This document shows positions 7,709-42,804 of a stretch of DNA of 58,510 nucleotides, one piece after another; the first letter of the stretch is position 1; every line of letters starts with the position of its first letter. Under the pieces are notes generated by a model, which saw only the letters and a list, made by a program, of their open reading frames with translations, did not search any database and was not told where the DNA came from. The stretch is taken from IMG/VR virus record IMGVR_UViG_3300032087_002691, positions 1 to 58,510 of that record. The stretch is one strand, 5' to 3'. Made by a program: the position numbers and the translations under genes. Source of the DNA: a virus (lineage: Duplodnaviria > Caudoviricetes).

Positions 7709-8511
7709 TGGCACGTAATCTAGTAACAGTATCAGAAGTTGTAAGTGACTTCATCATGTCTCTAGAGGGTGATGATTTCGCAAAAAACATATCAGATACT
7801 CTGGTTCACAACTACGCTCTTCGCGGCATTCGCGAGATGGGCTTTGACGTATTGCAGAGGGTACAGTCTATCAAGCTGACAAAGAACAGCAACGACACTG
7901 TAGACCTGCCAGATGATTTTGTATCTCTTGTTAAGGTTGGGGTTATCGGTTCCGATGGTCTGCTTTACGTGCTCGGTGAGAACAAGAACATCAACATGTC
8001 TCGCAAGTACAAGACGACTGCGGGAGGCACTTTGATTGACAGCGACGGAGATGGTGTTTATGACAGGGAGGACGCTAAGGGTTCTCCTAGCAGCGCAAGA
8101 GACCTTGACGACCATGTAGTCTTCAACAACTACATCTATCAAAACAATGTAGGGCAGCTGTACGGCTTCGGCGGTGGTAAGTATAGAGGGGAGTACAGAA
8201 TGAACTACGAGCAGAACAGAATCGAGCTTGCTCTTGACAGCGGATACAGCGAGATTGTTATTGAATACATCGCTGATGAGGCACGTAGCGAGAACCCAAC
8301 AGTTCATGTCATGGCTGAGGAGGCTCTCAGAGCATATATCTATTACAAGATTATAGAGCGAAAGAGCAGCGTTCCAGGCAACGAAAAGGCTAGAGCTAGG
8401 GCTGAGTACTTTAACGAGCTTAGAAGGGCTAATTCGCGCTTAAAATCATTCAGTAAGGAGGATGCTCTGCAGGTTATTCGTAAGAACTTCAAACAAGCTC
8501 CTAAGTACTGA
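7708..8511 (+). CDS. Second tail ring/tubular protein
   Basis: LPDDFV..VKVG and EYIAD...P.VH..AEEAL..YI motifs. Coupled to neighbours. Confidence 0.7.
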   Translation: MARNLVTVSEVVSDFIMSLEGDDFAKNISDTLVHNYALRGIREMGFDVLQRVQSIKLTKNSNDTVDLPDDFVSLVKVGVIGSDGLLYVLGENKNINMSRKYKTTAGGTLIDSDGDGVYDREDAKGSPSSARDLDDHVVFNNYIYQNNVGQLYGFGGGKYRGEYRMNYEQNRIELALDSGYSEIVIEYIADEARSENPTVHVMAEEALRAYIYYKIIERKSSVPGNEKARARAEYFNELRRANSRLKSFSKEDALQVIRKNFKQAPKY

Positions 8512-16977: not shown

Positions 16978-19900
16978 ATGGAAACAAAAGAGCAGTTCCT
17001 TGAACGCTACAATGCAGCTGTCGCGGCTGGCGCCACACAAGCTGAGCTTCAAGCAATGATTGATGAGTTTGAAGCCTCAGAAGCGGGGCAGAAAGCTAGG
17101 GAAGAATACGAATACCTCAACCCTCCTAAGGAGAAAGTCGATGAGTATTTAGAATTTTTAAATTCTGACCTTCAAGACGAGGAGTATGTGAATAATTATC
17201 TTACTCCCAGTGTCCCTATTCACAGGGGCTGGATGGACATGCAGACTGGGGATTTGAAACAGGACCGTGATTTAGATATGAGCCCTGCGTTTGTTGCATT
17301 ACAGGCATATAACTATACATCTAAAGAAGCAGATGTATGGCATACTAGTGGGGGTAACATAGCGGACAAAGAATTTGGCTCTGAGATGGAAGATTGGTAC
17401 GGTAAGCAGTTTGTTGAGCAAAACCGTACATACAACAAAGGAGCCTTAGACTATAAGTACGACAATAACCTTTCGGCCTCAGAAAATAAATACTTAGAGG
17501 AAAGGCATTATCAGAAGCTGCGTTATACCGCTGCTATGTCTCCATTAGGTTGGGCTGACGTGGCCAAGGATTTAACCGATGATAAGAAAGAGGAGTTGAC
17601 GTCGCAAATTGTTACAAATCTTATAGAAATTGACAAGGCTTACAATGAGCGGCTAAAAAATCCAGATGAGTATGATGACTACATGCTCACTCCAGAGGAA
17701 CGTTCAGAATTCTTAGACAAGCAATTAGATTATTTTTCGATGCTTGGAGTTACTCTTAATGATGAGGCTTATGATGATTTTCAAAAGGAGTATAAGAGAC
17801 TTAACGATTATCGTAAAAAAGAACTGCTGGATAAATTCTCACTCAGCGAGCTATCAAACAAGATTGAAGAGAGGCACCTAGCTAAAAAAAGAGTTAATAT
17901 TGACAGCTGGGATTCTGAGTATGTAGAGCTCTATGGGCTTCAAAAATATAAGTTGAGCAACATGGTGCCTGAGGCCGTGCCCAGCACTACACTACCCTTT
18001 TTATTTTCTCCTTCCAAAAAATCATCCGTTCCGACTCAGGAAAATAGAATTGTATTTAGCCCAAATAAAGAGTATGATTTTGGTGATAAGACGATTAGCG
18101 GGGAAGAGGCTATGCTTCTTCAAGAAGTAGGAATAGCTCAACAAGAGGGGCTGGAAAGATTTGTACGCGCTCATTTCAGCCAAACGTACTACTACAAAGC
18201 ACTGCATCTTATTGGCGGGTTGCCATCACAGGGAAACAACGACCCTGCATCTTGGTTTAAACCCGACTCCAAGTTGGACGCTAATAGGCAGGATTTAATT
18301 GACGTAATAACAGAAAAGATTAATTCTGATTCCCCTTCGGAACAGCATGAGGGTTGGTTTATGCTTTTTTTAGGGAGCGGCGGTGAGCATAAAAACCCTG
18401 AGTTTACGGGCTTCTCTGCTGAAACAGATGAAGAAAGAATTATTCATTTGCTTAACGCATTTAGCAACTCCAACGACACACAATTATTCAAAGCCTTTCG
18501 TAATGGGTTTGACGGAGGTGAGGGTTTTACCTATGAGCCAGAAGGAATAATGGCGATAGACAGGGGGGTTTCAGTGCCTGAAGCTATGGCGCAGTCGCTA
18601 TTTCCTGACGAAATGTTTCACTTTGGATTTGAGGCATACGTCGGCGGCGTGGGTTCATTGTTTTCTGGTAAAGATTTGCATGATAAAGCAGGGCAGCTAA
18701 CAGTCTTTGCAAACCAATTAGAAAATGTATATCCAGACATCCGAGAAAAAGGCATATCGGCTATACCCGACTGGAGCTATAAAATTACGAAATCTGGAAG
18801 GACTGATAGGGAGCATTTTCAAGAAACTATGACTAGGATAAGGTGGGAGGGTATAAGCGGTTTGGAGGATATGGCTGTGGAGAATATAAAGACTAGAGCA
18901 TATGCGTATGCGTCTGAATACATGGGGCCTAAACTTAGGCGTACACTGGGCAAAGATTACAGTCAATCCAAGCTTAGGGAATTTGAACAAAAACTATATC
19001 GAGAATATGATACCCCAGCAGACTTGACTGGAGATGGGTATTATAATGAAAACAAAGAGGGTTGGGATGGATTTACAGAAGCTTTTGGCGGGGAGTTTGG
19101 GCGAGCATGGCGACAGTCATGGGACGGTATGGCAACACTGACTGAAAATACTCTTGTCCTAGCGGATATTATGCCAGAATACAGGGCAAAGTCAAATCAA
19201 AGGGCACGGCAAAGAGGCATAGACGCCATAACAAAAGAGCTTCGTGTATCTACTAGGTCGCTTAGCGATAAGTTTAACTCTGGCGACTTTACTGGATGGA
19301 TTACAGATGTAGGCACACAAACGGGTGGGTCGATTCCAATGATGGGTGCGGCGCTGGTTACTGGGTTTGTAACAAGAGGGAACTCAAAAGCCGTTGCTGT
19401 AGTCACTTCCGCCATGGGTGCCGCTAGTGTTTATTCTCAAAACAAAGACACTGAATGGTTTAAAAACTTATCTGGCGCAGAGGCAACGGGATTTGTACTT
19501 AGTAGTGGTATAGCAGAAGGTTTGCCAGCGTTGGTGGGAGCAAAGATTTTTTCTGGCCAGGGCTTTCTTGCAAAAAGGCTTGCCAGTACGCCGATGGGAA
19601 AGGCGGTTATGTCGGGTAGCGGGAAACAGGGTTTCTTGGGCTGGACCAGGGGCCTGATTATTGGAGCTGGGCTAGGCGCTACTGAAGAGGCTTTGACAGA
19701 GGGCGTTACCGCTGGGTGGCAGTACACGGCAGAAAGATGGGCGAAAAATCAAGCAGGGGAATACGCTACTTGGAACTATGATGACTGGTGGGCAGCCGTT
19801 AAAGAAGGAGCTCTTGCTGGTCTTGGCATGGGTGGTGTTTTTTCTGGAACTGGTACTCTTGTTCGAACTGTTTCAACTAAAAGTCTTGGTTCATTAAGAA

Positions 19901-22900
19901 CAATAGCACAAATAAAAGAGCTGCAAAATCAGTACAGCCAGGCGGAATCAAGGACAGAAAGAGCGGCTATAGGTAGAAAAATTGTTGACGCTGTAGCGGC
20001 TCACACAAAGAATACAGAAAGACGCCAGGCTCTTATGGAATATCTGGCTGAGACTGATGACGCTAAATTCAACGAACTCGTTAATATTCATAATGAGGTT
20101 GAGGTTTTAGCGGAAGAATACTCTAGGTCTGATACCAAGAGAAGGAGGGAAATAAATAAAGAATTAAAATCTCTGCTGAATCGAAGGGCAGACATCGAAG
20201 GAGAATTAGACTCAGCCCTACAGACGGACGCAGCTTTAGAGGCTAGGGTACTAGGCAGGGAGGCCAAGAAAGCAGGTGAGAGGAGAAGAGATTACGGGGG
20301 GTTGTTTGAAAAGGGAACGGGAAAAATTACAGTAGATAAAAGCAACCTTGGTGCAGTAGCTAAAATCATTGAGAAGCTCACAAAACTTGATGTAAGCCCA
20401 TATAGCATTATGACTGAGGATGGCCGTGCTGTCGCGGCTACAACAGGAGAAAGGATTGTTAAGGGTATGCAAAACGCCTTAAACGTGGTCAGGGCACTGT
20501 CATCGCTTGGGGATTTTGCTATAGAGATGTATCGTGATTACGACACCTACATCAATGACCTTATGGAGGAAGGTAGTGTTGTCGACGAGGCTACGGGTGA
20601 GACTCGTAAGATGACGAGAGAAGAGGCTCAAAATGCTGCTGGTAGAGGAATGTGGACTGGCTCTGGAAAGATTAAGCTGTTCTTGCCAGCGATGCTTGAG
20701 AACACCGCTTATCACGAAGGGTATCACGACTTTGTTCTTCAGACGGTTGGAGAAAAGGCGGCAATAGGATTAGCTAAAAAACTATTTCAAGCCCTCCCTA
20801 AAAACCTAGTACAGAAGTACGGTAGCTTCTTAAGCTCCTATGGCTCTGGGATGGGCAATCTTGTTAAGATACTTGAAAACAAGAATGTTAGCGACGCCGA
20901 CAAGCGTCAAGCTGCAGATGAATTCCTTATGGAATTTTTGTCTGACCTGTCTGCTGGAAACGTTTCTATTGAAGTCCAGAAGGGGATTATTCGACAGTTT
21001 ATGGACTTCTTGGCTCCACACCTTGGTCGGATTGGAATTAAGGGTATACCAGACGCTAAGATTTCCGACGTAGTGAAAGCCATCAATCAGCTAACATCTG
21101 AAGTAGCTGAAGGTAAAAGGCTTGAAGGCCAAAAGGCTTTGTCTACTGCCGTAGCTAGAGCTGGATACGCAACGATGACAGCAAAGATGGGTATCAGCGT
21201 CGATGATGAAATTGAAGAAGGCTACGACCAGGCAAAGGCGCAAGCCATGACGTCTAAAGATTCCGACGAGAGCGGTAAAAAGATTGACGCCACCCTTATG
21301 TTCCTAGTCGGCAAGTCAAGAGTAAGCGGTAGATATCCTATTAGAAAGAGCTTCAACAGCAACCAGCACATAGAGAACTTCATTAACTATATGGAGGAGA
21401 GGAAAGGCTGGGTGTTTGATGAGATGTTCATCAATAAAGGTGAGTACGAGGGTAGGGAGTTCTCAACAGACGAACCCGCTGTGCAGCCACCAAAACCAAA
21501 GGCTACTCTAGTGCCTACGGATTCTGATATATACAGTGTTCAAGCATACGACTTTGAGGGCTTTGTGGAGATTATGGATAAGGCTCTTGAGAAGAGAAAG
21601 GAGCTTAGCATGAACCTCGGAATTCAAGTAGACCCGTTGACCGTAGAGGATATAAAACAAATCAAAGAGGAGGGCGGTGTTTTGTATATGACCATAGACA
21701 ATAAGGCTGGCGCCTATATCAAGCGCGATGGTTATATGGGCGGCTTGTTTAAGGACCCTGACTCAAGCTACCGCTCTGTAGCTAAGGCTATGCAAGACAA
21801 GCGCAACGGCCTCGCTAAGAATTCTTGGGGCATGAAGTCTGCGTTCATGAGCTCGTATGCTACAGACCTTGAGAGGCAGTATGTTGAGAATGGATGGAAG
21901 CCTGTAGCTAGGGTAGAGTTTAATCCAGATTATGCACCAGAGGGGTGGGATGCAGAAAACTCGCCGTTGATTAATAAGCCAGACATCGTATTCTACGTCG
22001 AGGGCAAAGGAGAAGTGGGCGGAGGTAAGATGATGGATAGCTATGACGAAGCTTATTCAGCAGCAAGAGACCTTGCTCAAAAGGACAGCCCAGCATCTAA
22101 GGCTCAAGCTATGCCAGACGCCTCGCTGCAAGAGGATGCTACCGTCTCTTTTGAGGATGCTTCAGGCATCACTCCTGCTATGCTGTCCAGTAGAGCGGGC
22201 GAGCTTAAGCTACCTGAATCTCAAAGACAAAAAAGAAATAAGGTTGTTACAGGTGTTCTCAACAAGTATGAGCTTGGCGAGATTAATCAAGAGCAATATA
22301 TCGCTGCTGTTCGAGAGAACATGCCAATCAAGGCTTTCGACGAGGTTCCAGAGATTCCTAGTCTATTAGACGTTGCCGCATCCCTTAAAACAAATCAAGT
22401 TAATAAGGGTATTATTGGCTCAAATAAGCAGGTGGAAGACGGTTATTACGTCGGTCTTAGGCTTGATGTTCCAGCATATAACGAGTATGACACATGGGTG
22501 GTGTCTGTACACCAGGGCAAAAAAGCAGAAGCTAGGACTCCCTACCTAGGAGGTAAGACTATCGGATATGGTCAGACAGGGGTCATCACAAATGTCACCT
22601 TTGATTCAACACCTGTAGCGGCACTTAATATCGCAAGAAGCAAGGGTAAAACGACTATTGCCCGCATGTTTGGAGACTGGAGAAATGAAGACCCTAAGTC
22701 TGTGCGTGAACGTGCGATGGCAATCATGGAGGGACCAGAATACAATTCTGACTACAAGGAAATTGGTAAGATGGACGGATGGATTCAGGTTGGTATGAAT
22801 CCGTTCAGGCACAGCTGGTTCTACGACAAGCGAGATGGCCGTCCGATTGCAGAGGCGTCTGAAGTTATTCAAATTGGGGCTCTTGTACTTGCCAAGGATG

Positions 22901-25900
22901 CGGTTAAGATTTCTGAATCTGATGAAAGGTTTAACGCTAAGAGCGCTGTCAGCGGCAAGACTATTAAGTTTCAACGTCCAGGCTCTATTGTCGACGATGT
23001 TAACAGTCTAGCTAAGACTGATAAGGTTGGCATCTTTGACTTCGAGTACTCTGCCAACACCTCTCAAATGGATGAGTGGATAAAGTCTGGGGTGGTAAGG
23101 CAGGAGGAGATGTCGTTTATCGAGGGTATGGATGTCTTGGCGCACTCACCAGACAACATGATGGTTGGTAGCGTGTCTGTTGGCGATAGAGTTATTGCAG
23201 AAAACGGAGGAGGCTTGTTCTATTCTGCTAGAACTGGCGACGTGTGGGCTGTAGCTGGTGAGAGTACTGGTAGAAACATGGCTAAGGAGCTCAATGAACT
23301 TCGCTCAAAATCTGAAAATGGTAAGGCATACATAGTTCTTATTAGTGGCAGCAGGGTGAAGCACGTAAGCTCTACTGGCGGTGTTATGTCATTTGCCGCT
23401 ATTGGATTTGAGATGGTTGAACAAGGCATCATCACTAAGTCTGAACTAAAGGAGGTGCTTAGGCAAACCATTAAGGAAACAGAAGTAATATCTGAAAAGG
23501 CTCAGATAAGTGCTAATGAGGCAAGGGTTAAAGATGGTAAAAAGCCCAAGCCAATAAGGAAGGGTGTTAGAACGCTAAGCGACCTCACGGGTACAATGCA
23601 AGCATTGTTTGACCGTTTCTATGTTGAGTTTGCTTCCCCATATCAATCTACTTTTGAGCAGAGGAAAGCCTTTGTAGATAGATTTGCCACCAATCTAGGC
23701 GCCTTGGTTAAAAGAAAGGCCGACATGGGCGATGCTGAGTCAACGGGCCTAAAGGAAGCCTACAAAAAAATGTTTGGTATTTCAAACATGAATACGAACC
23801 AATTTGGCAGCACCATTAAGAACTTCTTCTTCGACAACTTCCAAGAAAAAATCTTGCAGGGTGGCCAGAAGGGTGAAATATATGCAGCTATTGAGGTATC
23901 ATCTGACGTAGAGCTTGTAACGGACCCAGACCCAACAGCGTCTTACCCACTTAAACTCGTCAACACGGACCCCGATGCTCCAGCTCCAAAGACAATAGTC
24001 TTTAAAACAATGCGCCGAGTTGACGGCTCTATGATTTCTCGTAGCTCAAGAGCTATGGGTAAGCAGGTGGGTGATACATACATAAACAGCAAGGGTAAGA
24101 AGGCAACTATAACAACCACTGTCTTTGAGGCTATGAGTGGGCAGGGCGTCACCTCGTGGGGGCGCATGACTATGAAGGCTCCAGTACCAGTAGACGCTAT
24201 CGCTAGAGAGGTGGTGAGCATGACTGAGACCCGCACCATTGGTGTTCGCGCCAAGGCCCAGGGTAATATCATGAAGATGCTTGCTGATGCGATTGATTCA
24301 ACAATGCCTACTCCAACCATAGAGGTTAGACGTGGTAAGCTTATCATAAACTCTTCTAGGGCAGAGCTTTGGAATAGGAGCAGAGATGAGATTGTTGACA
24401 TGCTTGTGGCTAGTGGTATGAGCAAGGAGAATGCCGTGGCACTGTATAAACAAGCTAAAGCCTACAAGCAAGGCAGGTTGGCGGGTAAAAACGCCGCCGA
24501 CAAGAATGCCCGCAACACCTTAGGTAAAAGAAACAGGGAGCTTAGCTCTGAAGCTAAATCTTTAAAGAAAGAACTTCGTGAGCTTACTCAAAAGTCAGAA
24601 ACTGTTGATGAGTTCTTGACGTTCGCCATCGCCCTCATTGATGAGCGCATGAAGGATAGGGGTAAGCAGCCGTTCTCAAAGAGAGAAATACAGCGGTTCT
24701 TTAAAATTGTTCGTCAGGCACATAGGTCGTCTTCAAAACGTATAGCTAAGGATGGAGGGGCTGAAGTGATGGACTCGTTTGTCGAAAAGATTATTGACAT
24801 CTTTGATAAGCAGGATGCGCAACAGGCCATGAGGGATTACATGGCTTCAATTAGCGCAGCAAGAAAGCTTCAAGACAGAATTGCTAAGCTGACTAAGAGA
24901 CGTAAAAGAAACGAGTCTCTTAAGTCTATAGGTTCATACGTAGAGGTCTTGAGAAGGCTTGCTGATATCAATCCAGCGATGTTGTCTCCAACAGACGTTA
25001 TGGATTTTATTAAGACTTTGAACGCTGCTGTAACTTCCGTATCAAAAGTTAAGACTGAGTTTGACGCTGAGGAAGAGAGAGTTGTTGGGGTGGCTCCAAA
25101 TCGCACCTCGGTAGCAGCATTAACGGCCATGGCCAATGACTTCAGGGCTCTCGAAGAGATTGGACGTAATGCCAGAATGGTGGCTAAAGCCGAGGCGGCT
25201 GCACAGAAAAACGGAACCGAGTTTGAGGAGGAGTATTCAAAGCTTATCAAGGCAGAGAGGCTTAAGCAGGTTAGCTCAACCAGAAAAGCTGTTCTTAAAT
25301 ACATCGAGGACAACCCTCGTGAAAACCTAGACGCATCCAATCCAGCCGACCTGGAGTATATCCTAGAACAGCTGGCTGAAAATAAAGCCCTACTTGAGGA
25401 GCAGTCAAAAGAAGCTATTATCAATGATGTGCTTCTCCCCATGATTGCTTTCAACCTTGATAGGCTGCTTGCCGATGAGCATATAGCAGAAATACTGGGT
25501 GTATACTGGGCATTTGATTATGACGTCAACGCTCTTTCTCGGCGACTTTCAAAGCTTGACAAGGTGACACTCGCCAGTATTGAGTTTAAGCTTGACGACT
25601 ACCTGATGAACGACTCTACGATGGGTCTAGGTACTGTAGCTGCTAGGGTCAAGGGTAAGATAGATTATGCCGACGGCATTAAATCAAACTTGCTAGATAA
25701 GGGCATTGTTGCAACAGGCAAGCCACTTCTTGCTGCTCTTGACACCGTAGACTCTCTTATTAGATTCATGTTCAAAACAGACTCTAAGACCATAGCTAAG
25801 ATTAGAGTTCTTATTGGTTTTGCCGCTATTGAGAGGTCGTTTGCTAAGGCTGATATGATTCATGCCATGACAGCGGACGCCATCTCCGATAAGATGAATG

Positions 25901-28620
25901 AGATTGAGGGTAAGAGATATTGGAAGCGCAAGAAGGGTAGTGTAAGCACTGTGTACGACAATGCTATCATGCAGATATTCTCTATGGCTAGGCAGATGCC
26001 AGTCCTTGAGGAGGGTGTCGAAGGTCAGAACGCTGCTGATTGGTTCTTAGCCCTTAGAGATGTTATGCTCAGAACGATTGAGCACAACGAGCAGCAGAAG
26101 GACGTATACTCTAAAAAAGATATAGCTGAGATGCGTCGGGCATATGAATTTCTGTTTGAAAATTTCGATGAAGATTTGCCAGCTAGTCTTGACAACCTCA
26201 TGGGTAGAGTCGGTGTCTTTAGACCTGACCTTGTTGAGATGGTTGACTTTATGGTTGACATCCACTCCACTATGGAGGATATCTTCGCTAACTACGTAGA
26301 GAGGTATCTCGGTAAGACGTTGGTTAGAGAATCTCAATACACACCGTTCAGCGTCATGTCTAAGATGGAGCAATCCGCTGTTGATGATGCAGCGCAGCTT
26401 AGACAAGCGATGATGGAGGGGATGAGAACAGCAGCCCTGTCTAATGTAAAAAAGACAGCGGGCTCGTCATACGAAAGAAACCCAAAGAGTATATCTAGTA
26501 AGTCTAACATCATTGGTCTAAACTTCCTTAGTATCAATGAAAGAACGCTGAGAGAGAATACAATATTGTCTTACACTATCGGGGATGTAATGGCTTTGCA
26601 GTCAGCATTCTCTAGTGAAGAGATGACACAGCTCATCCCAGACAACGGAAGAAGAAATAGACTGCATCAAAAACTAATGCAGTATATATCTCAAGATATT
26701 GGGTCGGCACCATCGGTGTTTAAATCTAGATTTATTGTCAATGAAAGGGTTCCGTTCCTCGGCGGCAGGAGATTTAGAAACCCACTGCAAACGATAAGGA
26801 TTGCCACTATAGTAAGAGCATTTGGTGGGGTGTTTGTACAGACGCTCAAGCAGAGTACTGTTCTTGTTAGTGTCATTGGAAACATGAAAAACCCAATGCA
26901 GTCCATTCCGTATTTGCTTCAAACGTGGGCTGAGATTTGGGCATACGCGGCCAGAACTGGCGGGTTTAAGGATTCTAAACTAACCCTTGAGGCTAATGGT
27001 AGATATCGACTATTGCAAAACTCTCCTGTCTTTTCGAGAGACTATGAGGCTGGTAACATCGACCCCTACACAGGCTCTATCGAAACCGAAACAAGTTGGT
27101 TTGTAAGAACGAGAGATAAGCTCGCTTCTTTGGCTCTTAAGAACTTGAAGTCAACGGATAAGGCTGCAGCTATTGCATCATGGTTCGCATACTATGCTGA
27201 CTTCATGGTCTCAGAGAGTCTCGCCGAAAGCGTATGGGATATTGACTGGGAAGCTGAGGCGAACAATCCAAACGCAGAGGCGTTGAGCTATGCTGACACT
27301 ATGGTTTCAAAAGACCAAGCAGCATCTACTGCTAGACAGGCAGCCGATGTGTACAAAGATGGTCGTGGATTTGCTGGTGCGGTGACTGCATTTGCTAGAA
27401 ACATTATTCTTCCATTTGCCAGACACACCATTAATAAAAAACGAGCTATAGGTTCTGACGCAAGTAAGCTTCTATTTGGAAGAGACAAGAAAGCTAGGAG
27501 AGAGGGAGGTAAGAACATGGTGTTCCACATCGCGGAGCTAACAGCTTTCCAAGCTATAGGATATATTCTTCTACCAGCCTTAACTCAGTATGTAATGGGC
27601 CTCTTGGGTTATGACGACGAGGAAAAAGAGTCTGAATACAAAGACAACCCGTGGATGCGCGTGGGTGGCGGCGTGGTAAAGGACTTAGTGCCGCTTCCTC
27701 CTATGGGATACACTGACGACTTGATAACCGAAAACATAAACAGGTACTTCCTGTTCCCTATAGATTCTGGCATGGGGTGGACAGATGATGGCTATGATGA
27801 TGGCTACGAGGCATGGAAGAACACATCTCCAAACGCCTTGCCTACATACCAAAGAAAATCAGACCTCTCCGCCAAGGGTGCTTTAAACCTTATGCTTGGA
27901 CCGTATGGCCAGTTTGTAACTGACGCATACTACACGTATCAAAACCTTAACAACCCAGATAACAAGGTTATTTCTAAGTCAGGTAGAGAATACTACGTAA
28001 GGCCAGAAGATAAGGAGCAGATGGACACTCACTTTGCTTTAAGCTTCGTGTTGTTCATGACTCAAACGGCAGGGTTCTCATCAAAAGAACTTGACATGAT
28101 TGTCCGCAAGATGGATGACCTGCCTCGTGAAAGAGCCTTCTCGTCAGAGGAAGAACTCATGGGCTATGAGTATCAGATGGAGTGGCTGTTGGAGAACAGC
28201 GATGAGAACAAGCAGTTCTTGAAGTTCTTTGAGGGTGGAGAAGGTTCGGAAGATGTGGACGCTAGAATTGAACAATACCTCAATAGTATAGCCGATGACC
28301 CTGACTCATCTCCTCAAGAAGTCAAAAAGGCTTTGACCAAAATAAAAAAGGGAGCTAAGACTGCAGATGTGGAGTTCTATATGAAGCCTATGGAGGGTTA
28401 TTCAGAACACATCAGAGATATCAGGGGCATATACAGAAGCACATCCAACGCCAAGGAGTACGCTTCCGCTATCAACATCCGCAAGGAGATGATGAGCCCA
28501 GAAGAATTTGCTAACTTTAAGGCTCTATCCGATGTGTACATGTCCGCCATGAGTCCAGGTAGACTTGCTGAAAGCGAATACTATACTGCACACGGGTTGT
28601 CAGAAGACTTATCTAACTAA
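16978..28620 (+). CDS. Giant polyvalent virion protein (zincin MPTase, GNAT-like and unknown modules)
   Basis: 3880 aa. TAYHEGYH (HExxH) at 20713-20727 with a downstream DEFL. GNAT-like Y...GWKPVARVEFNPDYAPEGWD...PDIVF. Hydrophobic Gly/Ala segments near aa 780-960. Confidence 0.8.
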   Translation: METKEQFLERYNAAVAAGATQAELQAMIDEFEASEAGQKAREEYEYLNPPKEKVDEYLEFLNSDLQDEEYVNNYLTPSVPIHRGWMDMQTGDLKQDRDLDMSPAFVALQAYNYTSKEADVWHTSGGNIADKEFGSEMEDWYGKQFVEQNRTYNKGALDYKYDNNLSASENKYLEERHYQKLRYTAAMSPLGWADVAKDLTDDKKEELTSQIVTNLIEIDKAYNERLKNPDEYDDYMLTPEERSEFLDKQLDYFSMLGVTLNDEAYDDFQKEYKRLNDYRKKELLDKFSLSELSNKIEERHLAKKRVNIDSWDSEYVELYGLQKYKLSNMVPEAVPSTTLPFLFSPSKKSSVPTQENRIVFSPNKEYDFGDKTISGEEAMLLQEVGIAQQEGLERFVRAHFSQTYYYKALHLIGGLPSQGNNDPASWFKPDSKLDANRQDLIDVITEKINSDSPSEQHEGWFMLFLGSGGEHKNPEFTGFSAETDEERIIHLLNAFSNSNDTQLFKAFRNGFDGGEGFTYEPEGIMAIDRGVSVPEAMAQSLFPDEMFHFGFEAYVGGVGSLFSGKDLHDKAGQLTVFANQLENVYPDIREKGISAIPDWSYKITKSGRTDREHFQETMTRIRWEGISGLEDMAVENIKTRAYAYASEYMGPKLRRTLGKDYSQSKLREFEQKLYREYDTPADLTGDGYYNENKEGWDGFTEAFGGEFGRAWRQSWDGMATLTENTLVLADIMPEYRAKSNQRARQRGIDAITKELRVSTRSLSDKFNSGDFTGWITDVGTQTGGSIPMMGAALVTGFVTRGNSKAVAVVTSAMGAASVYSQNKDTEWFKNLSGAEATGFVLSSGIAEGLPALVGAKIFSGQGFLAKRLASTPMGKAVMSGSGKQGFLGWTRGLIIGAGLGATEEALTEGVTAGWQYTAERWAKNQAGEYATWNYDDWWAAVKEGALAGLGMGGVFSGTGTLVRTVSTKSLGSLRTIAQIKELQNQYSQAESRTERAAIGRKIVDAVAAHTKNTERRQALMEYLAETDDAKFNELVNIHNEVEVLAEEYSRSDTKRRREINKELKSLLNRRADIEGELDSALQTDAALEARVLGREAKKAGERRRDYGGLFEKGTGKITVDKSNLGAVAKIIEKLTKLDVSPYSIMTEDGRAVAATTGERIVKGMQNALNVVRALSSLGDFAIEMYRDYDTYINDLMEEGSVVDEATGETRKMTREEAQNAAGRGMWTGSGKIKLFLPAMLENTAYHEGYHDFVLQTVGEKAAIGLAKKLFQALPKNLVQKYGSFLSSYGSGMGNLVKILENKNVSDADKRQAADEFLMEFLSDLSAGNVSIEVQKGIIRQFMDFLAPHLGRIGIKGIPDAKISDVVKAINQLTSEVAEGKRLEGQKALSTAVARAGYATMTAKMGISVDDEIEEGYDQAKAQAMTSKDSDESGKKIDATLMFLVGKSRVSGRYPIRKSFNSNQHIENFINYMEERKGWVFDEMFINKGEYEGREFSTDEPAVQPPKPKATLVPTDSDIYSVQAYDFEGFVEIMDKALEKRKELSMNLGIQVDPLTVEDIKQIKEEGGVLYMTIDNKAGAYIKRDGYMGGLFKDPDSSYRSVAKAMQDKRNGLAKNSWGMKSAFMSSYATDLERQYVENGWKPVARVEFNPDYAPEGWDAENSPLINKPDIVFYVEGKGEVGGGKMMDSYDEAYSAARDLAQKDSPASKAQAMPDASLQEDATVSFEDASGITPAMLSSRAGELKLPESQRQKRNKVVTGVLNKYELGEINQEQYIAAVRENMPIKAFDEVPEIPSLLDVAASLKTNQVNKGIIGSNKQVEDGYYVGLRLDVPAYNEYDTWVVSVHQGKKAEARTPYLGGKTIGYGQTGVITNVTFDSTPVAALNIARSKGKTTIARMFGDWRNEDPKSVRERAMAIMEGPEYNSDYKEIGKMDGWIQVGMNPFRHSWFYDKRDGRPIAEASEVIQIGALVLAKDAVKISESDERFNAKSAVSGKTIKFQRPGSIVDDVNSLAKTDKVGIFDFEYSANTSQMDEWIKSGVVRQEEMSFIEGMDVLAHSPDNMMVGSVSVGDRVIAENGGGLFYSARTGDVWAVAGESTGRNMAKELNELRSKSENGKAYIVLISGSRVKHVSSTGGVMSFAAIGFEMVEQGIITKSELKEVLRQTIKETEVISEKAQISANEARVKDGKKPKPIRKGVRTLSDLTGTMQALFDRFYVEFASPYQSTFEQRKAFVDRFATNLGALVKRKADMGDAESTGLKEAYKKMFGISNMNTNQFGSTIKNFFFDNFQEKILQGGQKGEIYAAIEVSSDVELVTDPDPTASYPLKLVNTDPDAPAPKTIVFKTMRRVDGSMISRSSRAMGKQVGDTYINSKGKKATITTTVFEAMSGQGVTSWGRMTMKAPVPVDAIAREVVSMTETRTIGVRAKAQGNIMKMLADAIDSTMPTPTIEVRRGKLIINSSRAELWNRSRDEIVDMLVASGMSKENAVALYKQAKAYKQGRLAGKNAADKNARNTLGKRNRELSSEAKSLKKELRELTQKSETVDEFLTFAIALIDERMKDRGKQPFSKREIQRFFKIVRQAHRSSSKRIAKDGGAEVMDSFVEKIIDIFDKQDAQQAMRDYMASISAARKLQDRIAKLTKRRKRNESLKSIGSYVEVLRRLADINPAMLSPTDVMDFIKTLNAAVTSVSKVKTEFDAEEERVVGVAPNRTSVAALTAMANDFRALEEIGRNARMVAKAEAAAQKNGTEFEEEYSKLIKAERLKQVSSTRKAVLKYIEDNPRENLDASNPADLEYILEQLAENKALLEEQSKEAIINDVLLPMIAFNLDRLLADEHIAEILGVYWAFDYDVNALSRRLSKLDKVTLASIEFKLDDYLMNDSTMGLGTVAARVKGKIDYADGIKSNLLDKGIVATGKPLLAALDTVDSLIRFMFKTDSKTIAKIRVLIGFAAIERSFAKADMIHAMTADAISDKMNEIEGKRYWKRKKGSVSTVYDNAIMQIFSMARQMPVLEEGVEGQNAADWFLALRDVMLRTIEHNEQQKDVYSKKDIAEMRRAYEFLFENFDEDLPASLDNLMGRVGVFRPDLVEMVDFMVDIHSTMEDIFANYVERYLGKTLVRESQYTPFSVMSKMEQSAVDDAAQLRQAMMEGMRTAALSNVKKTAGSSYERNPKSISSKSNIIGLNFLSINERTLRENTILSYTIGDVMALQSAFSSEEMTQLIPDNGRRNRLHQKLMQYISQDIGSAPSVFKSRFIVNERVPFLGGRRFRNPLQTIRIATIVRAFGGVFVQTLKQSTVLVSVIGNMKNPMQSIPYLLQTWAEIWAYAARTGGFKDSKLTLEANGRYRLLQNSPVFSRDYEAGNIDPYTGSIETETSWFVRTRDKLASLALKNLKSTDKAAAIASWFAYYADFMVSESLAESVWDIDWEAEANNPNAEALSYADTMVSKDQAASTARQAADVYKDGRGFAGAVTAFARNIILPFARHTINKKRAIGSDASKLLFGRDKKARREGGKNMVFHIAELTAFQAIGYILLPALTQYVMGLLGYDDEEKESEYKDNPWMRVGGGVVKDLVPLPPMGYTDDLITENINRYFLFPIDSGMGWTDDGYDDGYEAWKNTSPNALPTYQRKSDLSAKGALNLMLGPYGQFVTDAYYTYQNLNNPDNKVISKSGREYYVRPEDKEQMDTHFALSFVLFMTQTAGFSSKELDMIVRKMDDLPRERAFSSEEELMGYEYQMEWLLENSDENKQFLKFFEGGEGSEDVDARIEQYLNSIADDPDSSPQEVKKALTKIKKGAKTADVEFYMKPMEGYSEHIRDIRGIYRSTSNAKEYASAINIRKEMMSPEEFANFKALSDVYMSAMSPGRLAESEYYTAHGLSEDLSN

Positions 28621-30003: not shown

Positions 30004-30386
30004 ACAAGACTATTGCAATAATCGCAATCGGGGCAAGCCTGGCGGGCGCTGGAGCCGTATCCAAGGTCAGCAACAAACCAACATCTGAACCTATAGAGAC
30101 TTCGGTTGAAGAAAACGTTGAATCAGACATCGTTGTTATCCAGATAAACGCGGACTGGAATAGGAGTAATACTAGGAGTGATTTGAGAGCACTTAGAGGC
30201 TGCGACTACAGATTTGCTTGGCTTGAGGACCAGCCATACGAGCTTAGAAAAACCATAACTTCCGTTCCTGTTGTCGTCATTTACGCTGATGACAGACCAG
30301 CGTATCAATATGCTGCTGGTATTAGCCTATCGCTTGACACTCCGTTTGAGGAGATACAGAATAAGGTTTACGAATTATCTGAGTAA
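30000..30386 (+). CDS. Exported thioredoxin-fold protein lacking CxxC
   Basis: Signal/anchor sequence. VIQINADWN at the WCxxC position and ITSVPVVVIY cis-Pro motif. Confidence 0.6.
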   Translation: MNKTIAIIAIGASLAGAGAVSKVSNKPTSEPIETSVEENVESDIVVIQINADWNRSNTRSDLRALRGCDYRFAWLEDQPYELRKTITSVPVVVIYADDRPAYQYAAGISLSLDTPFEEIQNKVYELSE

Positions 30387-31046
30387 CAGCACACTTCCTG
30401 AGGATACTATATTCTCTTCTGACTCCCCGTGTAATGTCCACACGTAGACACCCTGAGAGGCCCCGACTCCGTTCCAGCATACAGACCTGAGTAGGTCTCC
30501 GATAAAGACTAGGTTGCCCCACCTGTCATATATCCTATACTCTAGCTTATCCCAGCAGTAGCTATCTGCTATTGGACAAAAGAGGTCATTAACACCATCA
30601 TCGTTAGGTGTGAAATAGCTAGGCATATACACGTTGTAATCGCATCCCTCACAAGACATTCCAGTCACGCAATCAACAGTTGATATTGACAGCACGGTAT
30701 CTGGAGACAGCTGGATATATTCAAATACCTCAACCGTGTCTGCAGGCAACTGCACATACACCGTATCACATGATGCTATCGGCGGCTCAAGAACACCGCA
30801 TTTCCACGCCACCCACGCGGCCCATATACCATCTACTCCATGGTAGTAGTCGCAAAGCAGTTCCCCAACTTCGTATGGCGTCGTGCAATCAAGACAAGAC
30901 CCGTCGTCAACCGTAGCCTCGTCGTTGTAGTTGCAAGAGTTAGGCCACATGCACCCATATATAACGGGTACTTCAACATAAACTGTATCTGCCTGAGCAA
31001 CAGCTATAAGTGGCATCATAAATAGCGCTATCAAAGTCTTTCTCAT
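30375..31046 (-). CDS. Cys-rich secreted protein with a T9SS type-B (gliding-motility/CHU_C) C-terminal domain
   Basis: Signal peptide ending AVA-Q, GCM...CNYN.EATVDDGSC repeat unit, C-terminal MPSYFTPNDDGVNDLF...IYDRWG.LVF...WNG...GVYVW...G.V.LLR. Confidence 0.88.
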   Translation of the reverse strand: MRKTLIALFMMPLIAVAQADTVYVEVPVIYGCMWPNSCNYNDEATVDDGSCLDCTTPYEVGELLCDYYHGVDGIWAAWVAWKCGVLEPPIASCDTVYVQLPADTVEVFEYIQLSPDTVLSISTVDCVTGMSCEGCDYNVYMPSYFTPNDDGVNDLFCPIADSYCWDKLEYRIYDRWGNLVFIGDLLRSVCWNGVGASQGVYVWTLHGESEENIVSSGSVLLLR

Positions 31047-35472: not shown

Positions 35473-35535
35473 TGAGGGCGGAGGGGAATCGAACACCACA
35501 CATACACCTGTTCATGTATGTCACCATGCGCCCTT
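35473..35535 (-). ncRNA. D-armless tRNA-like RNA / pseudo-tRNA
   Basis: AGGGCG/CGCCCT acceptor-like stem, ACATACA/TGTATGT hairpin, TTCGATT T-loop in an imperfect stem. Confidence 0.5.
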
Positions 35536-35540
35536 ATTCG

Positions 35541-35617
35541 TTCGGAAGGGGGGACTTGAACCCCCATGTGACCAGTTACTCTTTCTACAAGGTATAAGCT
35601 TGAGGAGATACTTCCGA
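35541..35617 (-). tRNA. Non-canonical tRNA-like RNA with a UAU (Ile) anticodon loop
   Basis: Perfect 7-bp acceptor TCGGAAG/CTTCCGA, perfect T arm GGGGG-TTCAAGT-CCCCC, CAAG-CTTATAC-CTTG arm, rearranged core. Confidence 0.7.
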
Positions 35618-35635
35618 TAGTTTACTTGCTGTTTG

Positions 35636-35709
35636 TACCCCCGACAGGATTCGAACCTGTGACCGTTTGCTTAGAAGGCAAATGCTCTATCCAGCTGAGC
35701 TACGAGGGC
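35636..35709 (-). tRNA. tRNA-Arg(UCU)
   Basis: GCCCTCG-TA-GCTCAGCTGGATAGAGC-A-TTTGC-CTTCTAA-GCAAA-CGGTC-ACAGG-TTCGAAT-CCTGT-CGGGGGT-A canonical cloverleaf. No encoded CCA. Confidence 0.97.
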
Positions 35710-36053: not shown

Positions 36054-36326
36054 TTAATGGTTTAATGTATTAACGAAGTCGTTGTATGTATTTCTAAACG
36101 CAGGAATCATCATCTTATTGTCTCCGTGTACGCGAAGTAGCCAGAGCTCGTTGCTAGTACACTTGAGGGGCTCGCGTAGTTCTGAATACGTAAGCTTCTT
36201 GTCGACGATGAGGTATCTAACTAAGCTGCACTTAGCGTTCCATAAAGGGGCCTTGTACTTTGTAGCTTGAGTGACGTCAGTGCCGAAGTACTCGCTTGCT
36301 TTATTGATGATTTCTTCTGTGTTCAT
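36054..36326 (-). CDS. Hypothetical helical protein (possible degenerate DnaA-C HTH)
   Basis: EEII...SEYFG...LTYSEL pattern. Confidence 0.55.
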   Translation of the reverse strand: MNTEEIINKASEYFGTDVTQATKYKAPLWNAKCSLVRYLIVDKKLTYSELREPLKCTSNELWLLRVHGDNKMMIPAFRNTYNDFVNTLNH

Positions 36327-37108
36327 ATCTCTTGATAGTTGTAGTATGCGTCTGAGATGATTGACCCATCTAGGTATTGCTTAATCTTCTCAACCGATGT
36401 ATTAAACTTCTTTTCTCCTGATTCTATTGTTTGGGGAGTCGCTTTATATACTCCGACAGCGTAGGGGAATGTCTTTTCTTGGACCACCCAGTAGTAATCC
36501 TCTACGCCGAACACCTTGCAGTAGATGTATGCTTGGATGTCGTACCCAAACTTGAATACATCGTATCTGAATCCGCTCATGCGCTGAGTCGTCTTGCTGT
36601 CAGAGATGTAACCATCCCCCTTGCAGTCTAGGAATCCTCTGACGGGGATATCATCCCCTTGGACACCATCTATGAAGCTGTTGAACTCTACTTGGTATTC
36701 TCCGTTGAGGAACTCGTCGCGAACTGGTGTCTTGTCGAGTCGTTCAATCATCTCCATTGCTTGCCTGTAGTCGTTGTTGTTGACAACAGACTTACCATCG
36801 GTGGTTGCTTTCATCGTGTGCTCCTTCAACCACTCCTTGTACTTCTTGGTAGAGCGGGGAGCTCGTCCACCTATCTCTGCCGTTATCTTGTCGTCGTTAA
36901 ATACAACGAACTCTTTATCAAATAGTTGTGGCTCGAACAGAAGCTTGTCGTATATGGAGCCGAACCGAAGAGCGTCGCTGTCCTTACGGATTCGCCCCTG
37001 CATATACATCTCCCAAAGCTTGATGTCTTTGAGGGCTTCCTTGCAGGAGGAATAGGAAAGGTAACCTTTGCCTACTCGCTCCGCAAGTTTGTTCGCAAAC
37101 TCCATCAT
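36323..37108 (-). CDS. RecE/exonuclease VIII-like PD-(D/E)xK exonuclease
   Basis: LSYS, FGS, RGFLD...DSKTT, YDIQAYIY, VQEK..PY motifs. Confidence 0.85.
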   Translation of the reverse strand: MMEFANKLAERVGKGYLSYSSCKEALKDIKLWEMYMQGRIRKDSDALRFGSIYDKLLFEPQLFDKEFVVFNDDKITAEIGGRAPRSTKKYKEWLKEHTMKATTDGKSVVNNNDYRQAMEMIERLDKTPVRDEFLNGEYQVEFNSFIDGVQGDDIPVRGFLDCKGDGYISDSKTTQRMSGFRYDVFKFGYDIQAYIYCKVFGVEDYYWVVQEKTFPYAVGVYKATPQTIESGEKKFNTSVEKIKQYLDGSIISDAYYNYQEI

Positions 37109-37716
37109 CCGCACACAGACTTCAGGTAGTCGTTCTGCTCTGTTGTCATGCGGCTGCCGTGCTTCTCATCAACAGCTTGGAATGCTGCCAGTGAATTTTT
37201 GCTGTTGCGAATGTAGCTCTCTAGCTGTTCAAGCTCTTGTTCGCTAAGCCCTTTGGACTTAGATGGGGCGGCACTTCTTGGCGCAGGTTTGGATGCGGTA
37301 CGTCCGTGGTCGTTGGTTGCGTCGCTGTCCTTGGTGTCGTCGATGCAGAACAATCCATTCAGAGCATACTTACGTGCGTAGCTTGATGCTGAACCTGTAA
37401 TCTGGGAGGTATCCATACCCTTCTTGTTCTCCTCCTCACGAGCAAAGCCAGATGTCTGTACAGCTTGACCTTCCTTGTTGTGTACGACAGCGGTAGCTTT
37501 CACGTACACCCTACCACCAACATCTACAATCTCATCTGTGATAGTTAAGATAAGTCCGTGACTGCTGAGGTGTGGCTTGACAGCTTCGAGGATGTCCTCA
37601 CACGAGCGGTATTTGTATCCTCCAAACTTATTTGTCTGTCCCTTTGGGGCCTTGAGGGAGGATTGAATTGATGCCATTGATTCTACGATGGCGCTGTAGT
37701 TGTTGTCTTTTGACAT
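37105..37716 (-). CDS. erf: ERF-family single-strand annealing recombinase
   Basis: LKAPK.Q.NKFG.YKYRSCEDILEAVKP...Q.TGSASSYARKYALNGLF.IDD..D.D. Confidence 0.92.
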   Translation of the reverse strand: MSKDNNYSAIVESMASIQSSLKAPKGQTNKFGGYKYRSCEDILEAVKPHLSSHGLILTITDEIVDVGGRVYVKATAVVHNKEGQAVQTSGFAREEENKKGMDTSQITGSASSYARKYALNGLFCIDDTKDSDATNDHGRTASKPAPRSAAPSKSKGLSEQELEQLESYIRNSKNSLAAFQAVDEKHGSRMTTEQNDYLKSVCG

Positions 37717-41843: not shown

Positions 41844-41917
41844 TTTTTAGTAGGTTTCTAGTACTATAACGTGGTGGGGAGAACCATATTGTCCTCCCCT
41901 TTGTTAACGGATGTTAA
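41844..41917 (-). promoter_or_regulatory. Early promoter GACAATA-N15-CGTT plus TTAACA-N4-TTAACA box
   Basis: Motif at 41868-41893; box at 41902-41917. Confidence 0.78.
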
Positions 41918-42804
41918 TCTCCGAGGATGCAGTCTACTGCCTTCATCGCTTGGGTGCAGGCACTGACAAGGAACTTCTTGTCGTTGCCAATCTTGCTAAT
42001 CCACCCGTTGATGTATGCCTGCGAGTTTGTGTGGTCAGACTTGGGGCTCAGCCCCACGATGCCTGTCAGGAATTCGGCACCAACTTCCGCCACCAATTCC
42101 TCCTTGCTATAGTTCTCGTCACCGAAGGAGTTCATGTCAACCAAAGTCTTGCGATTCAACAGACTCTCGTGGCCTGTGCTATGCGTCAGCTCGTGGAAGA
42201 GCACCTTGTAGTAGTCGTCAGCCGACACGAAGGTCTCCATCCTCGGCATCTGAACGTGGTGGGTCGCTGGCCTGTAGTATGCTCGGTCTCCTCCCTGCTC
42301 CAAGGTTGGTCGCCCCTTGAACTTCTCGTAGATGGCGTCAGCGCGCTCGATAGGCGTTGAATCATTGCCAGCTGACACGGGCTCGCGTCTCGGCTCGATG
42401 TCGTCGCATTGGGCAATGTTGAACACGTTGTAGGAGCGCAGGGAGAACAACTTCTCGTAGGCCATACCAACAGGGATGTCAGACTCTTTCTTGTAAATCT
42501 TCTTGTCCTCTCCCTTGAAGAAGATGTTCCAGAAGATGACCATCGTGGATGTCTCTCCCTTGCGGACCTGACCACCAAGCTGAGATGCCTGCTTGTACGT
42601 GAGCCATTCGTTGTGCTCATACTTCTTGTCATCCATCTCCGCGAAGAGGAAGAACACGTTCATCCCCTTGTACGGACGTCCTGTGGCTCGGTTGATTGGG
42701 GCCAGCCCACCTGAACCTTCCCATGGGCGGAACCATGCCATGCCTTTGTCCTTGAGTCCGTTGATGACGCGCTCGGTCACCTTGTCATAAATGTCTTGCT
42801 TCAT
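41914..42804 (-). CDS. ardC: ArdC-family protein (ssDNA-binding domain plus zincin-like domain)
   Basis: IY..VT.RVI..L..G...W.RPW, YKGMN, WLTYKQA..LGGQVRKGE, VFNIAQ, HELTHSTGH..LLNR, YSKEELVAE. Confidence 0.93.
   Translation of the reverse strand: MKQDIYDKVTERVINGLKDKGMAWFRPWEGSGGLAPINRATGRPYKGMNVFFLFAEMDDKKYEHNEWLTYKQASQLGGQVRKGETSTMVIFWNIFFKGEDKKIYKKESDIPVGMAYEKLFSLRSYNVFNIAQCDDIEPRREPVSAGNDSTPIERADAIYEKFKGRPTLEQGGDRAYYRPATHHVQMPRMETFVSADDYYKVLFHELTHSTGHESLLNRKTLVDMNSFGDENYSKEELVAEVGAEFLTGIVGLSPKSDHTNSQAYINGWISKIGNDKKFLVSACTQAMKAVDCILGD

Follow-up and report, generated by a model that had tools for sequence, protein, structure and literature searches.

The locus analyzed here raises the question of whether a 77-nt element that has the ends of a tRNA and a UAU anticodon loop, with a D-stem-like helix drawn around the anticodon arm and a D-loop-like segment placed before the T arm, is a working tRNA. 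The window (the whole stretch of DNA analyzed, 58,510 bases) is an IMG/VR virus record with an estimated completeness of 98%, and a CHU_C type IX secretion domain in the open reading frame (ORF) at 30375-31046 suggests a host within the Bacteroidota. The 58.5-kb genome carries two very long ORFs on the plus strand, 16978-28620 (3,880 codons) and 8511-14000 (1,829 codons). An ArdC-like anti-restriction protein with a zincin peptidase domain was recognized among the ORFs at 41914-42804 and 36323-37716 (both on the minus strand), and near the ArdC-like ORF lies a recombination pair formed by an Erf-type annealing protein and a PDDEXK exonuclease. A minus-strand intergenic stretch contains three elements in the order tRNA-Arg(UCU), 77-nt element and minimal tRNA-like element, with a conserved ORF and a primase/helicase gene on their 3' side. 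The 77 nt at 35617-35541 (minus strand) read exactly as in the original prediction, TCGGAAG-TA-TCTC-CT-CAAG[CTTATAC]CTTG-TAGAAA-GAG-TAACTGGTCA-CAT-GGGGG[TTCAAGT]CCCCC-CTTCCGA-A. The features are given below in 5' to 3' order; A1 is an alignment of 61 distinct sequences in which only columns 16-37 were fixed by the search, and A2 is one of 102 distinct sequences in which columns 15-36 were free.

35635..35709, minus strand: canonical tRNA-Arg(UCU), 17 nt upstream of the 77-nt element on the same strand, called by ARAGORN and scoring 70.6 bits with the Rfam tRNA model
35611..35617, minus strand: 5' strand of the acceptor stem, positions 1-7 (UCGGAAG), pairing with 35542-35548
35608..35610, minus strand: connector U8 A9 U10, invariant in 61 of 61 sequences of A1, in columns that the search pattern did not fix
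35605..35607, minus strand: CUC (positions 11-13), 5' strand of the D-stem-like helix around the anticodon arm, supported by covariation
35588..35604, minus strand: C14 U15 and the anticodon hairpin, with a 4-bp stem (16-19/27-30) and the 7-nt loop CUUAUAC
35594-35596, minus strand: anticodon UAU
35582..35587, minus strand: 3' bulge UAGAAA, positions 31-36, proposed equivalent of positions 43-48 (variable loop)
35579..35581, minus strand: 3' strand (GAG, positions 37-39) of the enclosing helix, covarying with 11-13
35566..35578, minus strand: D-loop-like segment U40 A41 A42 C43 U44 G45 G46 U47 C48 A49, followed by C50 A51 U52
35549..35565, minus strand: T arm, with a 5-bp stem and the loop UUCAAGU
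35541..35548, minus strand: 3' strand of the acceptor stem and discriminator A (35541)

The acceptor stem, T arm and discriminator A had been described as canonical, and they are indeed normal, both in the sequence and in A2; the identity of the neighboring tRNA-Arg(UCU) was likewise confirmed by ARAGORN and Rfam. What the 77-nt element lacks are a canonical D arm after position 9, ahead of the anticodon arm, and a variable loop before the T arm.

Two other elements of this region deserve a description of their own. The minimal tRNA-like element, at window positions 35474-35535 (minus strand) just 5' of the conserved ORF 35456-34956, combines an acceptor-like stem of 6 to 7 bp with a variable inner hairpin and a T arm of 6 bp whose loop reads TTCGAYT, and has neither anticodon nor D arm. 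Homologues were found in L003-L009 and at L029:2898-2981, with a compensatory change of the T stem in L008/L009, and the only Rfam hit was to tRNA-Sec at 14.1 bits, which is not significant. The second is a conserved element of ca. 170 to 200 nt that in the window's relatives lies directly 3' of tRNA-Arg(UCU) (L004:2977-3177, with equivalents in L002-L036) and is missing from the window, where 35618-35634 is only a 17-nt spacer. Two strongly conserved blocks flank a variable middle, a terminal hairpin has a GAAAGA loop, and a long-range helix visibly covaries (for instance, GAUAUCC/GGAUAUC, GAUGUCC/GGGCAUC, GAUAACC/GGUUAUC and GGCAACC/GGUUGCC). It gave no match in Rfam at E values up to 10 and is a candidate for a new structured RNA. 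A group I intron splitting a tRNA was considered for it; this same Rfam result and the intactness of both neighboring tRNAs speak against such an intron.

Standard tRNA detection at default settings misses the 77-nt element. ARAGORN called only the tRNA-Arg(UCU) at 35635-35709 in the window, and Rfam, at the gathering threshold and with default filters, also found this gene alone. With lax filters, the Rfam tRNA model (RF00005) did align to 35541-35617, at 30.8 bits (the gathering score is 29), but only with the D arm deleted (4 nt in place of 15 model positions) and 18 nt inserted in the variable region; the relative in L004 reached 28.9 bits with the same model. A poor fit to the canonical cloverleaf had been anticipated, and an element that ARAGORN does not call and that Rfam accepts only by deleting the D arm agrees with that expectation. 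Among the matches listed, ARAGORN calls overlapped 4 of 171 Ile-type copies, all of them calls of 87 to 97 nt, and 0 of 103 Arg-type copies. The 95-nt "tRNA-Ile(tat)" that the program proposes in L002, together with three similar calls of 87 to 97 nt, was discarded as an artefact in which upstream sequence and an "intron" are borrowed. Folded as a single sequence, the 77-nt element is no better than its shuffles (z = -1.27), and therefore the case rests on comparative evidence. The missing ARAGORN call and this unremarkable fold are also what speaks for a decaying tRNA pseudogene or a chance tRNA-like fold, an explanation that has to be judged on the homologues.

With the primase gene as the query, 80 related viral loci were retrieved. 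Five of them (L002-L006) contain the element, and even in this small set the T stem and the 12:38 pair have changed in a compensatory manner. Among the loci of the phage group to which the window belongs, only these five were found to carry the gene, and the R1 model, run against 75 primase-related loci and the window, added no further member, only canonical tRNAs at 15 to 25 bits. An exact 24-mer from the window's T arm and acceptor strand had no match in IMG/VR; these parts vary too much, which is why the core was chosen as the search anchor. An exact 22-mer of the core was present in at least 118 IMG/VR contigs, with sizes from about 4 kb to more than 360 kb, and a second pattern that left positions 15-36 free matched at least 119 viral contigs. 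The two Ile-type scans combined gave at least 191 copies in at least 186 loci of uncultivated phages. All sets were gathered by sequence patterns that fix some columns, and the numbers of viral contigs are lower bounds, so that these counts are samples and not a census. When one genome per prokaryote species was searched, 25 matches came up; about 20 are proper members, all on contigs of metagenome-assembled genomes (MAGs) and many inside arrays of up to 21 tRNAs, and about 5 are due to chance, the match in the only isolate genome among them. None of 50,697 GenBank phage records contained the Ile type, indicating that no cultured system carries it. Some contigs have two rewired tRNA-Ile genes, UAU and GAU in L244 (9499-9575 and 10741-10817) and L202 (9881-9957 and 9971-10047), and CAU and GAU in L262 (2617-2693 and 3550-3626).

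The homologues support every helix of the proposed fold. In A2, 98.0% of the cells pair, versus 73.5% in shuffles and 38.6 to 48.3% when the partners are slid; double-sided changes occur in 16 of the 20 pairs, and the covariation score was reached by none of 500 shuffles, giving a positive answer to the check that had been suggested for the rearranged core. RNAalifold, unaided, predicted the same fold. In the same alignment, compensatory changes affect six of the seven pairs of the acceptor stem (96.6% of cells pairing), all four pairs of the anticodon stem (99.0%) and four of the five pairs of the T arm, where G57-C65, equivalent to G53-C61, is invariant. The equivalents of C32, U33, A35, U36 and A37 in the anticodon loop are invariant in 102 of 102 sequences (A2, columns unconstrained). 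The bulge is also well conserved, reading UAGAAA in 88, UUGAAA in 7, UCGAAA in 4 and otherwise in 3 of 102 distinct sequences (columns unconstrained), and we infer that it is the equivalent of variable-loop positions 43-48.

The critical part is the enclosing helix, which had been seen as a CTC/GAG pairing with the anticodon hairpin nested inside it. This helix covaries at each of its three pairs: 12:38 is UA in 52 sequences, CG in 48 and UG in 2, and is never unpaired (A2); 11:39 changes to A-U and U-A in L202:9881-9957 and L262:3550-3626; and 13:37 becomes G-C in 2 of the 20 rows of A3, the alignment of Arg relatives. In addition, when the neighboring tRNA-Arg is aligned with a family-derived model, its canonical D stem falls on the enclosing helix. 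With hundreds of copies and compensatory changes in every helix, selection rather than decay is supported, as had been argued from the intact stems, and a pseudogene or a chance fold is contradicted by the covariation counts to the point of being practically negligible. Two other structural ideas were dropped. A local hairpin in the 40-50 segment, suggested by L003, has no such pairs in a mutual-information scan, and a kink-turn in the UAGAAA bulge was rejected by eye since the opposite strand is devoid of the required G.A partners.

The segment between the enclosing helix and the T arm retains the bases of a D loop. A41, G45, G46 and U47 are invariant in A1, where they were unconstrained, with the spacing of A14, G18, G19 and position 20, and the equivalents of A14, R15, G18, G19 and A21 are all kept. 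Positions 42 and 52 form a covarying pair, AU in 54 and GC in 7 sequences of A1, and AU in 81, GC in 18, GU in 1 and other combinations in 2 sequences of A2. A purine covarying in this way with the pyrimidine next to the T stem is what characterizes the R15:Y48 Levitt pair. In a divergent Ile(GAU) subfamily with the helix ACC/GGU, the 42:52-type pair is kept as G..C, A..U and G..C. The retained D-loop bases and the covarying 42:52 pair thus bear out the D-loop-like AACTGGT that had been noticed in the place of the variable loop.

These findings can be accommodated by a block-permuted core. After U8-A9, the chain would run through one strand of the D stem, go around the anticodon arm and return by way of the GAAA-containing bulge; it would then form the other strand of the D stem, the true D loop (with the equivalents of A14, R15, G18, G19, N20 and A21) and the equivalent of Y48 before entering the T stem. 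The net effect would be an exchange of blocks 10-21 and 22-48 of a normal tRNA. The long arm would comprise about ten layers (U.U plus 3 bp, C.N, and U.U plus 4 bp), a number that would match the D stem, the 26.44 pair and the anticodon stem, and U8, the D loop and Y48 would be brought adjacent as in the canonical core. If the layers do correspond in this way, the same L-shape and the same elbow contacts can form, an equivalence of shape reached through a different connectivity that is suggested by layer counts and conserved bases. The predicted contacts are U8-A41, A42-U52 (trans) and pairing of G45/G46 with the T loop. Such an order might have originated by a partial tandem duplication followed by the loss of redundant copies. 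Some details argue against a canonical equivalent, namely, an anticodon stem of only four Watson-Crick pairs plus U.U, a C as the equivalent of position 26, and an 11:24 equivalent that is R:Y versus the usual bacterial Y:R.

The same secondary structure could belong to a working tRNA without any permuted core, in which the D arm is simply lacking, the anticodon arm is elongated and the variable loop is large, giving a looser shape like that of armless mitochondrial tRNAs. This is identical to the alignment produced by Rfam, with its deleted D arm and 18-nt variable insert, and secondary structure alone cannot separate it from the permuted core. However, the putative variable loop contains an invariant A, GG and A at D-loop spacing as well as an R:Y pair before the T stem, and its position-20 equivalent switches with the amino-acid class (see below). 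The full 77 nt are also retained, with no reduction in size, and the layers of the long arm equal those of D stem, 26.44 pair and anticodon stem. We therefore regard a merely D-arm-lacking tRNA as quite improbable and favor the permuted core.

The next question is which amino acid and codon such an RNA would serve. Among the matches listed, the 191 Ile-type copies have the anticodons UAU (175), GAU (14) and CAU (2); A35, U36 and A37 are invariant although unconstrained, so that variation is confined to the wobble base and never leaves the Ile box. All of the 119 distinct Ile-type sequences (119 of 119) have A as the discriminator. The base after GG, U47 in the window and equivalent to position 20, is U in 61 of 61 Ile-type sequences (A1) and A in 83 of 84 Arg(UCU) relatives, both unconstrained. 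According to the available part of PMC9976931, bacterial Ile identity includes A73, U20, A35, U36 and A37, and bacterial Arg identity consists of A20, C35, U/G36 and A/G73, with A20 as the main ArgRS determinant. The window element has A73, A35, U36 and A37, and it has U20 as well, provided that the D loop is taken to be the segment following the helix. The minor E. coli Ile determinants C4-G69, C29-G41 and A38 are not kept (4:69 is G-C and position 38 is C in the window), and 4:69 is CG in 58, GC in 37 and AU in 7 sequences of A2. Since the position-20 base tracks the amino-acid class, the relocated loop would be expected to sit where the D loop sits, and the RNAs would be expected to be charged. 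A switch between Ile and Arg identity would need changes only at positions 35, 20 and 73.

A descriptor scan of 396 sequences (3.45 Mb) detected 203 distinct rewired tRNAs (UAU, 101; UCU, 83; GAU, 17; CAU, 1; and CCU, 1) and no rewired tRNA for other amino acids. In the DNA examined, the class is limited to Ile (UAU, GAU and CAU) and Arg (UCU, rarely CCU/UCG), a restriction that is provisional because the scanned loci had been gathered with Ile and Arg anchors.

The Arg form is widespread and extends to cultured phages. The same architecture with a UCU loop was found in at least 120 further viral contigs. Of the 104 distinct sequences, 86 possess proper acceptor and T arms, and their subtypes range from 74 to 79 nt. 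The 77-nt subtype aligns without gaps to the window element (99.5% of cells pairing), while the 79-nt subtype is present in 246 GenBank phage records, mostly from Escherichia, Salmonella and Klebsiella phages; the BASEL phages Bas93 and Bas94 are among the matches. For the 25 of these 246 records that were listed, the annotation under the match was no feature in 16 and "tRNA-OTHER" in 4, the other 5 being records without annotation; in phage Antha, a 79-nt feature is labeled "tRNA-OTHER." In Escherichia phage phi92, the Arg-type gene is unannotated and, by eye, lies between tRNA-Leu and tRNA-Ser. A promoter-like TTGACA-17-TATAGT site (11 of 12 matches) ends 11 nt upstream of it, the CCA end is encoded, and the Rfam tRNA model gives 38.6 bits. 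None of 5,426 complete E. coli genomes contained the phi92-type sequence. Rewired tRNAs with a different Arg anticodon or layout were also observed as single cases (L265:2181-2254, L228:5487-5565 and L326, the latter a 76-nt CCU form); of these odd forms, a UCU tRNA has a 4-bp helix placed immediately against a 5-bp anticodon stem, and the other two carry the anticodons UCG and CCU.

The genomic context agrees with a role in decoding. Among the matches listed, a tRNA on the same strand is present in the locus for 152 of the 171 Ile-type copies, and 64 copies have one within 20 nt. Over the same matches, a canonical tRNA(UAU) was present in only 1 of the 24 Ile-type loci with at least 10 other tRNAs, and a canonical tRNA-Arg(UCU) accompanied the rewired one in 6 of 103 Arg-type loci and in 1 of 19 large arrays; in contrast, ARAGORN made 100 canonical tRNA-Arg(UCU) calls across 170 of the Ile-type loci listed. 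This rarity of co-occurrence indicates that the rewired gene stands in for the canonical one. ATA and AGA had been noted as visibly common codons, which agrees with the 32 long ORFs of the window, where 221 of 853 Ile codons are ATA and 301 of 784 Arg codons are AGA. In two large arrays, 76-nt tRNA-shaped sequences with good acceptor and T arms (L258:3984-4059 and L267:3781-3856) also received no ARAGORN call.

The position of the window element, between a tRNA and a minimal tRNA-like element and upstream of a conserved ORF, might be taken to mean that it is only a tRNA-shaped processing signal, where RNase P/RNase Z cuts would serve the maturation of the neighboring tRNA-Arg or of the mRNA downstream, with no function for the RNA itself. 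This seems very improbable to us, as an acceptor plus T minihelix would suffice for that purpose, leaving the fixed NAU anticodon, A37, the D-loop-like bases and the identity bases unexplained, and as the family occurs in many unrelated contexts within tRNA arrays.

A tRNA mimic acting outside translation is another explanation, in the form of a decoy or sponge for a host anticodon nuclease, for some other tRNA-targeting defense or for a tRNA-modifying enzyme; the rewired core would bar use by the ribosome while an authentic anticodon loop was presented. The anticodon loop and its surroundings are in fact unusually conserved, the class is confined to two anticodon families, and the odd core could plausibly impair ribosome use. 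Both a rewired AUA decoder and a decoy for anticodon nucleases had been put forward in the original prediction. However, a mimic would be expected beside the canonical phage tRNA, the arrangement that the counts above show to be rare, and the wobble base is not fixed (U, G or C, within the Ile box). The CCA end is encoded in phi92. A nuclease decoy would have no need of a discriminator and a position-20 equivalent that conform to IleRS/ArgRS identity, yet both conform to the rules as given in the accessible part of PMC9976931. Hence, of the two functions proposed, the Ile-box anticodons, the class-tracking identity bases and the filling of the canonical slot appear to favor the AUA decoder and to disfavor the decoy, and we hold a mimic to be unlikely.

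Judged from sequence comparison, the 77-nt element is probably a working, AUA-decoding phage tRNA-Ile (UAU) with a block-permuted core. The gene would be transcribed together with the neighboring tRNA-Arg(UCU); RNase P and 3' processing, including the addition of CCA, would mature the RNA, and the host IleRS would charge it, allowing AUA to be decoded without lysidine. One point against an AUA decoder is that an unmodified U34 would risk reading AUG. Metatranscriptome contigs X16-X18, from three runs, were considered as evidence of expression and set aside, as they cover only the conserved core (35556-35612), come from relatives and may reflect DNA carry-over. Tolerance of unusual cores has a precedent in an engineered D-arm-less tRNA that is accepted by E. 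coli HisRS, EF-Tu and the ribosome (as reported in the part of PMC11551756 available).

The original prediction was, in sum, right in what it observed and largely right in how it interpreted it. Most likely, the element belongs to a large class of unannotated phage tRNAs whose core is block-permuted and which would decode AUA, as here, and AGA. A bolder proposal, to which we give an even chance, is that phages, including phi92, routinely use a second, permuted-chain version of the L-shaped tRNA (blocks 10-21 and 22-48 exchanged) that would be charged by the host IleRS/ArgRS through the usual identity bases and would decode AUA/AGA in the place of the canonical gene, perhaps escaping host tRNA nucleases or quality control that recognize the normal connectivity.

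Should this bolder proposal hold, it would provide the first case of an internally permuted core in a natural tRNA. Provided that these RNAs are indeed charged and take part in translation, a bacterial-type translation system would not depend on cloverleaf connectivity, and D-loop synthetase identity elements would work from a different place in the chain. As the class is invisible to ARAGORN and is either unannotated or labeled "tRNA-OTHER," phage tRNA inventories, and the codon-usage arguments built on them, systematically miss AUA and AGA decoders. The presence of the Arg form in cultured E. coli phages makes it testable at the bench straight away, and a scaffold that looks naturally orthogonal may be of interest to genetic-code engineers. 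No description of such a fold was found in the main texts of the freely accessible literature, and the available parts of two works on noncanonical tRNAs, PMC5389517 and PMC7609411, do not mention it.

Compared with canonical tRNAs (RF00005), the rewired element shares the 7-bp acceptor stem, the discriminator, the 5-bp T stem with its UUCRANY loop, the 7-nt anticodon loop with U33 and A37, U8, the GG of the D loop, an R15:Y48-type pair and the location in tRNA arrays, but its D stem encloses the anticodon arm and its D loop comes just before the T stem. A nonstandard order of tRNA pieces is also known from the permuted tRNA genes of Cyanidioschyzon merolae, where processing then restores a normal tRNA. 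In the element described here, the ends are normal and the permutation is internal, so that the permutation must persist in the mature RNA. The C. merolae genes have the 3' half preceding the 5' half (PMC3728597, in the part available), whereas in the rewired element the acceptor strands occupy opposite ends of the gene and pair with each other directly.

D-arm-lacking mitochondrial tRNAs and the engineered "mini HisT" resemble the rewired element in having no conventional D arm after position 9, but in them the D arm is lost and the molecule is shorter (available parts of PMC11551756 and PMC7609411). The rewired element relocates the D stem and D loop; in place of the short replacement loop, lost contact bases and reduced size of the mitochondrial type, it keeps 77 nt, the GG and the equivalents of A14, R15 and A21. 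Allo-tRNAs and other 8/4 or 9/3 tRNAs are likewise noncanonical, come from metagenomes and phages and have UAU among their commonest anticodons; they differ in their altered acceptor/T split and long variable arms (PMC5389517, as far as available), while the rewired element has the standard 7/5 split and a changed core connectivity. It does not resemble class II tRNAs either, since positions 37-39 pair with 11-13 and not locally, and no D arm follows position 9. In function, the closest parallels would be the phages' habit of carrying AGA and AUA decoders, and the tRNA-Ile(UAU) of Mycoplasma mobile and the UAU suppressors of tilS-less Bacillus subtilis, in which UAU replaces the lysidine-modified CAU for the reading of AUA; these, in the available parts of PMC3575796 and PMC3919564, are ordinary cellular tRNAs, whereas the window element is phage borne and rewired.
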